A stretch of 64,000 nucleotides of DNA from Escherichia coli (GTDB lineage: Bacteria > Pseudomonadota > Gammaproteobacteria > Enterobacterales > Enterobacteriaceae). Position numbers and translations under genes: made by a program. The notes beneath the pieces are model-generated. The model was not told where the DNA came from and ran no database searches. It saw only the letters and a list, made by a program, of their open reading frames with translations. Where the stretch lies: the NCBI RefSeq assembly GCF_003334815.1, contig NZ_QOWO01000015.1. The stretch is one strand, 5' to 3'. Below are positions 57,533 through 57,586 of the stretch, one piece after another (positions within the stretch are counted from its first letter, which is position 1; the number at the start of each line of letters is the position of its first letter).

Positions 57533-57586
57533 TATCAGGTGTCAAGAATGGAGAGTTCTCGCTCTCCATTCTTGACGCCTGATATC
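57533..57586. terminator. Large near-perfect hairpin (about 24-bp stem, 6-nt loop) between ymgC and pdeG; probable operon terminator
   Basis: ATATCAGGTGTCAAGAATGGAGAG-TTCTCG-CTCTCCATTCTTGACGCCTGATAT, one mismatch; followed on + strand by ...CTAACTTATTTTG. Confidence 0.45.

Follow-up and report, generated by a model that had tools for sequence, protein, structure and literature searches.

A long single-copy hairpin between ymgC and pdeG of Escherichia coli and its possible role at the 3' end of an operon message

The spacer between the Escherichia coli genes ymgC and pdeG (ycgG) contains a long hairpin that is real, non-random, present as a single copy and unannotated. It lies in the ycgZ-ymgABC operon's 3' flank and is free of intrinsic terminator features on either strand. 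We tentatively favour a role in RNA: as a part of the 3' untranslated region of the operon message, the hairpin might block 3' exonucleases, be cut by RNase III, or both, and in doing so define the end of the message upstream of pdeG. This reading is the best supported of those considered here, and a functionless scar is nearly as likely.

Through the ycgZ-ymgABC operon, the Rcs system and biofilm control are linked to blue light and cold, and pdeG, a gene for a c-di-GMP phosphodiesterase, follows directly downstream on the same strand. Transcriptional coupling between the operon and pdeG decides whether light and cold signals reach c-di-GMP turnover, and the hairpin is the only candidate barrier within the spacer. 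The element comes in two natural forms, a near-perfect one carried by about two thirds of E. coli genomes and an interrupted one in about a third of them, and these offer a ready natural experiment. The stakes are local rather than general: the locus is a clean single-copy case for studying how a long hairpin that has no U-tract acts where a bacterial operon ends.

Gene context and structure of the hairpin

The window, by which we mean the whole 64-kb stretch of DNA that was analysed, carries bluF on the minus strand followed by ycgZ, ymgA, ariR, ymgC, pdeG and ymgF, all on the plus strand. Its ymgC-pdeG spacer is 100% identical to those of E. coli K-12 W3110 and MG1655; MG1655 coordinates equal the window coordinates plus 1,159,559, which places the hairpin at 1,217,091-1,217,144. 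The island is AT-rich, with 35-44% G+C against 49% for the window, and horizontal acquisition has been proposed for it (PMC3509220); H-NS binding is flagged for the spacer (PMC3946193). Northern blotting revealed ycgZ-ymgABC as a single discrete polycistronic mRNA without ycgG (PMC3509220), so the message has to acquire a 3' end somewhere between ymgC and pdeG. The features of the region are as follows.

57189-57437, plus strand: ymgC, last gene of the ycgZ-ymgABC operon, 5' of the hairpin
57498-57508, plus strand: partial third copy of the arm base, ATTTCAGGCGT, complementary to 57575-57585 (11 nt, 91%)
57500-57651, no strand: junction segment of about 150 nt, found in E. coli proper only, containing the hairpin and lying between the ymgC-side and pdeG-side blocks
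57532-57555, plus strand: left arm, ATATCAGGTGTCAAGAATGGAGAG, the minus-strand complement of which holds a perfect TTGACA
57556-57561, plus strand: loop, TTCTCG, in which RNAfold closes one further U·G pair to leave a 4-nt loop
57562-57585, plus strand: right arm, CTCTCCATTCTTGACGCCTGATAT
57572-57602, plus strand: predicted sigma-70 promoter for pdeG/ycgG, TTGACG-19-TATTTT, a sequence prediction under a SELEX peak (PMC3946193)
57769-59292, plus strand: pdeG (ycgG), the gene that follows on this strand, starting 183 nt past the hairpin

An inverted-repeat search placed the two 24-nt arms at 57532-57555 and 57562-57585 of the plus strand. The arms are separated by a 6-nt spacer and are 96% complementary, with 23 Watson-Crick pairs and T57540·G57577 as the sole exception, which makes a G·U wobble in plus-strand RNA and an A·C mismatch in minus-strand RNA. 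A first-pass annotation of the DNA had described a hairpin of roughly 24 bp with one mismatch at 57533-57586, between ymgC and pdeG; the structure and its gene context hold, and the coordinates were one base too far to the right.

The fold is exceptionally stable. The 76-nt RNA around the hairpin has a minimum free energy of -44.5 kcal/mol on either strand, with z-scores of -11.8 for the plus strand and -9.8 for the minus strand, and none of 200 shuffled sequences was as stable. As single-stranded DNA, the hairpin reaches -25.5 kcal/mol (plus) and -24.3 kcal/mol (minus), with z-scores of -11 and -9. The arm pattern was absent from all 100 shuffles of the 64-kb window, and the window itself holds no second inverted repeat of at least 20 nt at 90% or higher complementarity, the runner-up being a 14/14 repeat at 54550-54587. 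Within the 331 nt of the ymgC-pdeG spacer the hairpin is the sole strong structure. The segment near 57499, which had been noted previously as an additional complement of the arms, is real and occupies 57498-57508, exactly where homology to the sister-lineage flank of ymgC stops. The extended structure expected from it is not predicted by folding, as the segment is not joined to the hairpin in the minimum-energy fold of the whole spacer.

The hairpin was found at one locus per genome, with no second copy, in 4,954 of 5,426 complete E. coli genomes searched with a 62-nt query in sensitive mode at an E-value limit of 10; the two places reported by the search correspond to the two strands of the palindrome. 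Likewise, no second match to the hairpin occurs inside the 64-kb window. The first-pass annotation had set the element apart from REP sequences and named multiple genomic copies as the observation that would speak against it, and the single copy in 4,954 genomes agrees with its view. One locus per genome rules out membership in the REP/BIME, ERIC/IRU, Box C and RSA families. A scan against Rfam returned only two matches at chance level (E-values of 1.8 and 6.3), neither of them at the hairpin, and in the literature we found no paper describing it.

Allelic forms within E. coli

Identity to the K-12 query is 99% or higher in 2,890 genomes, which over 62 nt amounts to complete identity; 337 genomes match it at 95-99% and 1,670 at 80-90%. 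In about 34% of E. coli genomes the allele is an interrupted one, found in CFT073 and other strains, which we label B2-type. The allelic forms below were compiled from sequences of complete genomes together with 80 metagenome contigs.

K-12 type (the window): one G·U pair
Perfect palindrome (L006, L065): 24/24 pairs, owing to C at 57540
Compensated (L091, L095): G57577 to A, giving a U-A pair
L007 type (L007): three changes relative to K-12
B2-type (CFT073, EcPF18 and others): T57540 to G, T57542 to G, ACAG inserted after 57545, loop TT to CG, C57562 and C57564 to T
Mosaics (L078, L054): recombination within the element and in its surroundings

Across these alleles the pair 57540/57577 runs from C-G through U·G to U-A, and the G57577-to-A change also converts TTGACG to TTGACA. 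In the two main alleles, ATATCAGGCGTCAAGAATGGAGAG is the sequence shared by three of the four arms. If the element arose by inverted duplication, it follows that the perfect palindrome is the ancestral form and the B2-type the derived one, a polarity obtained with no outgroup; judged from the arm sequences, the interrupted form looks derived. A 50-codon open reading frame that spans the hairpin (57479-57631) was rejected as coding, since the common allele with the 4-nt insertion shifts its frame. An apparent deletion of the hairpin at one locus (L076) belongs to an error-ridden assembly and was discarded.

The interruption affects the two strands and the two types of nucleic acid unequally. 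Plus-strand RNA of the B2-type allele folds into a 14-bp upper stem, an internal loop and a 7-bp lower stem, with -27 to -29 kcal/mol and z-scores of -4.1 to -5.1. The minus-strand RNA yields about -22 kcal/mol (z-score -2.7), and the DNA hairpins about -10 kcal/mol (z-scores of -1.5 to -2.0). Transitions in the stem are mostly C-to-T on the plus strand and produce G·U pairs there, and across ten haplotypes standard pairs make up 94.6% of the cells on the plus strand versus 88.3% on the minus strand. This plus-strand pairing bias is a hint only, as it is confounded by mutation bias. Covariation showed no significant excess over the shuffle controls on either strand, and for the L007 allele the two strands are equal in folding, with no plus-strand bias. 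The two main alleles differ by 6 substitutions and one indel in the 54 nt of the hairpin, a divergence no lower than that of the flanks (about 10%).

Differences between the alleles are clustered: two substitutions and the 4-nt insertion fall within 12 nt, and four changes fall within 10 nt around the loop. In these complex differences and in its short-spacer inverted repeat, the element resembles the palindromes and quasipalindromes used in studies of template-switch mutation and SbcCD cleavage. It departs from template-switch quasipalindromes in having no nearby donor that could be found and in a direction of change unrooted by an outgroup. The palindromes studied as SbcCD targets measure about 100 bp and longer, and arms of 24 nt are well below this size. 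The search for a template-switch donor of the clustered differences was negative within 3 kb, save for one borderline 12/14 match in pdeG. The matching segment, 58098-58115 on the minus strand, has the complement GGGAAAACAGGAAT, which agrees with the altered or inserted part of the left arm of the B2-type allele, GGGCAAACAGGAAT, at 12-13 of 14 positions; at a distance of about 560 nt this match is borderline relative to chance, and the segment may or may not be the donor of the complex change.

We also note a difference in pdeG among strains with the interrupted hairpin. The B2 strains EcPF18 and CFT073 (L002, L008), which carry this form, are without the 5' part of pdeG downstream of about window position 57727. 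The truncated pdeG of these strains is the ycgG2 allele (PMC6385356). Two other loci (L009, L010) combine the interrupted hairpin with an intact pdeG.

A candidate RNA element at the 3' end of the operon

According to the reading that we favour, the element would act as RNA within the 3' untranslated region of the ycgZ-ymgA-ariR-ymgC message, where it would fold as a very stable 24-bp hairpin. The operon would be transcribed in vivo up to the hairpin and past it, since a stem with no U-tract is not expected to stop RNA polymerase alone. The probable place of termination is further downstream, in the spacer, which is untranslated and bound by H-NS, with Rho as the presumed terminating factor. 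The hairpin might then act as a barrier to 3'-to-5' exonucleases, so that 3' ends would form at this point and the mature operon mRNA would end at the base of the stem. The acting nuclease could also be RNase III: in the near-perfect K-12-type allele, its cleavage would separate the ymgC message from pdeG read-through and destabilise it.

Several observations argue for this role. The plus-strand fold is extremely stable (-44.5 kcal/mol, z-score -11.8), and nothing else in the 331-nt spacer, which is without an intrinsic terminator, forms a strong structure. The operon message has to end before pdeG, as the northern blot indicates, and ymgC mRNA is not polyadenylated, in keeping with non-intrinsic termination. 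The interrupted B2-type allele still folds well as plus-strand RNA, and does not do so as minus-strand RNA or as DNA, and most transitions in the stem yield G·U pairs on the plus strand. RNase III accommodates a duplex of about 22 bp (PMC6212723), and the 24 consecutive pairs of the K-12-type allele surpass this size, which makes the RNase III processing site suggested in the first-pass annotation plausible. In the B2-type allele, 14 and 7 pairs are split by the internal loop and fall short of a continuous 22-bp duplex. A published comparison of an rnc deletion with the wild type lists a site labelled ymgC-ycgG at MG1655 1217246 (window 57687), with 41 reads in the deletion against 0 and 1 in the wild type (PMC5371410, Table S1). 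This weak signal comes from unstranded RNA-seq of low coverage, with sites forced to be at least 400 bp apart, and it lies about 100 nt downstream of the stem. The same table also contains 1215537 and 1218492 (window about 55978 and 58933), both in the same H-NS-bound island. Together the three sites suggest that RNA along the island as a whole is double-stranded or antisense, in place of an effect specific to the hairpin.

Other observations weigh against a role in RNA. Two tables of E. coli 3' ends, from cultures that express the operon poorly, show none at MG1655 1217091-1217160 among their listed entries. The RNase III signal is weak, neighbouring parts of the island being listed too, and about one third of E. 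coli genomes carry the interrupted stem. The ymgC of the sister lineage and the pdeG of the sister species are without a comparable hairpin. Covariation is indistinguishable from that of shuffled controls, and the plus-strand bias could reflect the C-to-T mutation bias.

Among known systems, the hairpin resembles REP/BIME-type and other 3'-UTR stabilisers, which serve as exonuclease barriers after Rho-dependent termination: it shares with them a stable stem-loop devoid of a U-tract and a position in the spacer 3' of the last gene of an operon. Like these stabilisers, it would be expected to stop PNPase and RNase II. It differs in being a single-copy element rather than a member of a family of hundreds, in having no REP consensus and in its nearly perfect stem of about twice the length. 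With the hairpins cut by RNase III, such as lambda sib in the retroregulation of int and the 5' leaders of rnc and pnp, it shares a continuous duplex of at least 22 bp just outside a coding region, and in both cases cleavage would remove a protective 3' structure and expose the upstream message. The likeness is limited by the evidence from the rnc deletion, here a weak unstranded hint nearby, and by the internal loop of the B2-type allele, which breaks the 22-bp duplex. In addition, sib has an overlapping terminator, whereas the present hairpin has none.

Origin of the ymgC-pdeG junction

Homologues of YmgC are essentially confined to Escherichia, and a scan of the genome collection with YmgC peptides gave no matches. 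In E. whittamii, Escherichia sp. E1V33 and SCPM-O-B-8794 (L012-L014), pdeG encodes a protein with 84-89% identity and lies 3' of a DUF302-like gene, with no ymgC present; in E. whittamii and its relatives, the K-12 spacer has homology only from about 57652 onwards. In a divergent lineage labelled E. coli (L017/L018), ymgC shows 86% nucleotide identity, and homology there ends at about 57499 and gives way to a cybB/gapC neighbourhood, an arrangement shared by none of the complete E. coli genomes. The two genes are thus adjacent only in E. coli proper, and from the end of homology at about 57499 in L017/L018 and its start at about 57652 in E. whittamii it follows that the segment 57500-57651 exists only where ymgC and pdeG adjoin. 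The sister-lineage loci contain neither an arm sequence, with up to 6 mismatches allowed, nor homology to the junction segment, and no comparable hairpin follows ymgC or precedes pdeG in these lineages.

Such a distribution gives some weight to the hairpin being a functionless palindromic relic, which we regard as nearly as likely as the role in RNA. The relic would be an inverted duplication produced by the DNA event that, in the E. coli ancestor, joined the ymgC block to pdeG; it would have drifted since, staying nearly intact in the K-12-type haplotype and decaying in the B2-type haplotype. Consistent with this, the hairpin sits inside the E. coli-only segment of about 150 nt bounded by the homology breaks at about 57499 and 57652, and sister lineages are without an analogous structure. 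The 4-nt insertion and four stem substitutions carried by about 34% of genomes, in a form that looks derived, are what drift might be expected to leave, as are the insignificant covariation and a divergence of the hairpin not below the roughly 10% of its flanks. A relic accounts less readily for the 2,890 genomes that are identical to K-12 over 62 nt or for those with a perfect 24/24 palindrome. Nor does it explain why plus-strand RNA folding survives in the decayed allele where DNA folding is lost, and the operon still needs a 3' end to be formed before pdeG.

A more elaborate history would combine the two accounts. The head-to-tail fusion of ymgC, the end of the blue-light operon, with pdeG in the ancestor of E. 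coli may have left a junction scar that was then kept as an insulator or retroregulator dependent on RNase III, similar to lambda sib, and that is now decaying in CFT073-type strains with the interrupted allele along with the truncation of pdeG. We consider this course of events improbable as a whole. If true, the scar turned insulator would uncouple the BluR-controlled operon from a gene for c-di-GMP phosphodiesterase.

Possible roles at the DNA level

The hairpin might alternatively act as DNA, its right arm supplying the -35 element of a pdeG promoter and its left arm a divergent TTGACA, or the whole forming a cruciform or a site for a dimeric protein in the H-NS-bound spacer. We find a function of this kind unlikely. 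Genomic SELEX with the RpoD holoenzyme detected a peak in the ymgC>ycgG spacer, and the predicted -35 hexamer (57572-57577) falls inside the right arm (PMC3946193). The TTGACG hexamer is kept in nearly all alleles, one of which has the consensus TTGACA, and the DNA hairpins of the K-12 form are stable. The promoter is nevertheless only a guess from sequence with a poor 19-nt spacer, and it was missed by a scan with spacers of 16-18 nt; its -10 region is not conserved in the B2-type alleles. Moreover, the block upstream of pdeG that is shared with sister species starts only at about 57652, and an ancestral promoter would therefore lie downstream of the hairpin. The potential to form a DNA hairpin is lost in one third of genomes. 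Arms of 24 bp are also far longer than the half-sites of known operators, and the protein-binding palindrome entertained in the first-pass annotation finds no support.

Terminator and mobile-element readings

Intrinsic terminators were recognised by at least 4-5 U within the 8-9 nt directly 3' of a G+C-rich stem of about 5-14 bp. The plus-strand stem is followed by CCCGCCTAACTTATTTTG / CCCGCCUAA and the minus-strand stem by TGCGGACATAATAAG / UGCGGACAU; in both cases there is one U in nine nucleotides and no T run. The stem, as had been pointed out before, is far longer than that of a typical terminator, 24 bp against the usual 5-14 bp, and its G+C content is only 44%. A scan of 57000-58000 for consensus terminators found no sites on either strand. 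The hairpin thus resembles intrinsic terminators in being a stem-loop on the coding strand at the end of an operon and differs from them in its missing U-tract, long stem and modest G+C content.

That the hairpin is a strong intrinsic (Rho-independent) terminator insulating the operon from pdeG, as initially proposed, accordingly appears very improbable, and the proposal is unsupported in the canonical sense. Its position and strand would fit, the stem is very stable, and it lies downstream of a discrete operon mRNA, but the consensus features are missing on both strands, with a single U among the nine nucleotides after the stem. The mRNA of ymgC is detectable but not polyadenylated, which fits non-intrinsic termination: it behaves like messages that have no such terminators. 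Among the entries listed in two tables of 3' ends (PMC7815308 and PMC10687069), which derive from cultures with poor expression of the operon, there is no 3' end near MG1655 1217091-1217160, the region of the stem.

Least likely, together with the intrinsic terminator, is a recombination site or what is left of a mobile element, whether a miniature inverted-repeat element or joined IS ends: two 24-nt inverted arms around a short spacer, set in an AT-rich island for which horizontal acquisition has been proposed, and an IS3 end joined to the hairpin apex in one strain, would suit such an origin, but the element keeps to one locus per genome in 4,954 genomes, is absent from phages, viral contigs and true plasmids, and has arm flanks, GTCCGCA and CCCGCCT, that give no convincing target-site duplication. 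The phages and viral contigs searched held no copy of the hairpin, and the 14 matches in records labelled as plasmids are non-mobilizable pieces of E. coli DNA that carry ymgC, some of them chromosome-sized and representing mislabelled chromosome. We know of no IS end that matches the hairpin arms.

The strain with the IS3 end is A29 (L011 1471-1538, joined to window 57553), in which the right end of IS3 abuts the hairpin 3 nt before the loop and the whole stretch reaching from within bluF to the left arm is absent. This arrangement represents one IS-associated deletion with its endpoint at the apex of the palindrome. Two further candidates were rejected by eye. An integron attC site was considered for the GCCTAAC that follows the stem, but the core sites are wrongly ordered and there is no integron; for an RcsB box, the half-sites AAGAAT and ATTCTT are about 25 bp apart rather than adjacent.

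Other repeats of the region

The next-best inverted repeat of the window, at 54550-54587, is a perfect 14-nt repeat of the form ATACTTTGTACAAT-N10-ATTGTACAAAGTAT; it lies just upstream of bluR, in the spacer that separates this gene from bluF. The repeat has TGTACA half-sites reminiscent of the operators that belong to MlrA and BluR, two MerR-like regulators, and it may be a regulatory site for bluR. Upstream of pdeG, at 57682-57705, lies a 12-nt tandem unit (ATGCTCTCTACC / ATGCTCTCTGTA) of variable copy number (L004, L011): strain ES9 has three units, K-12 two and A29 one.
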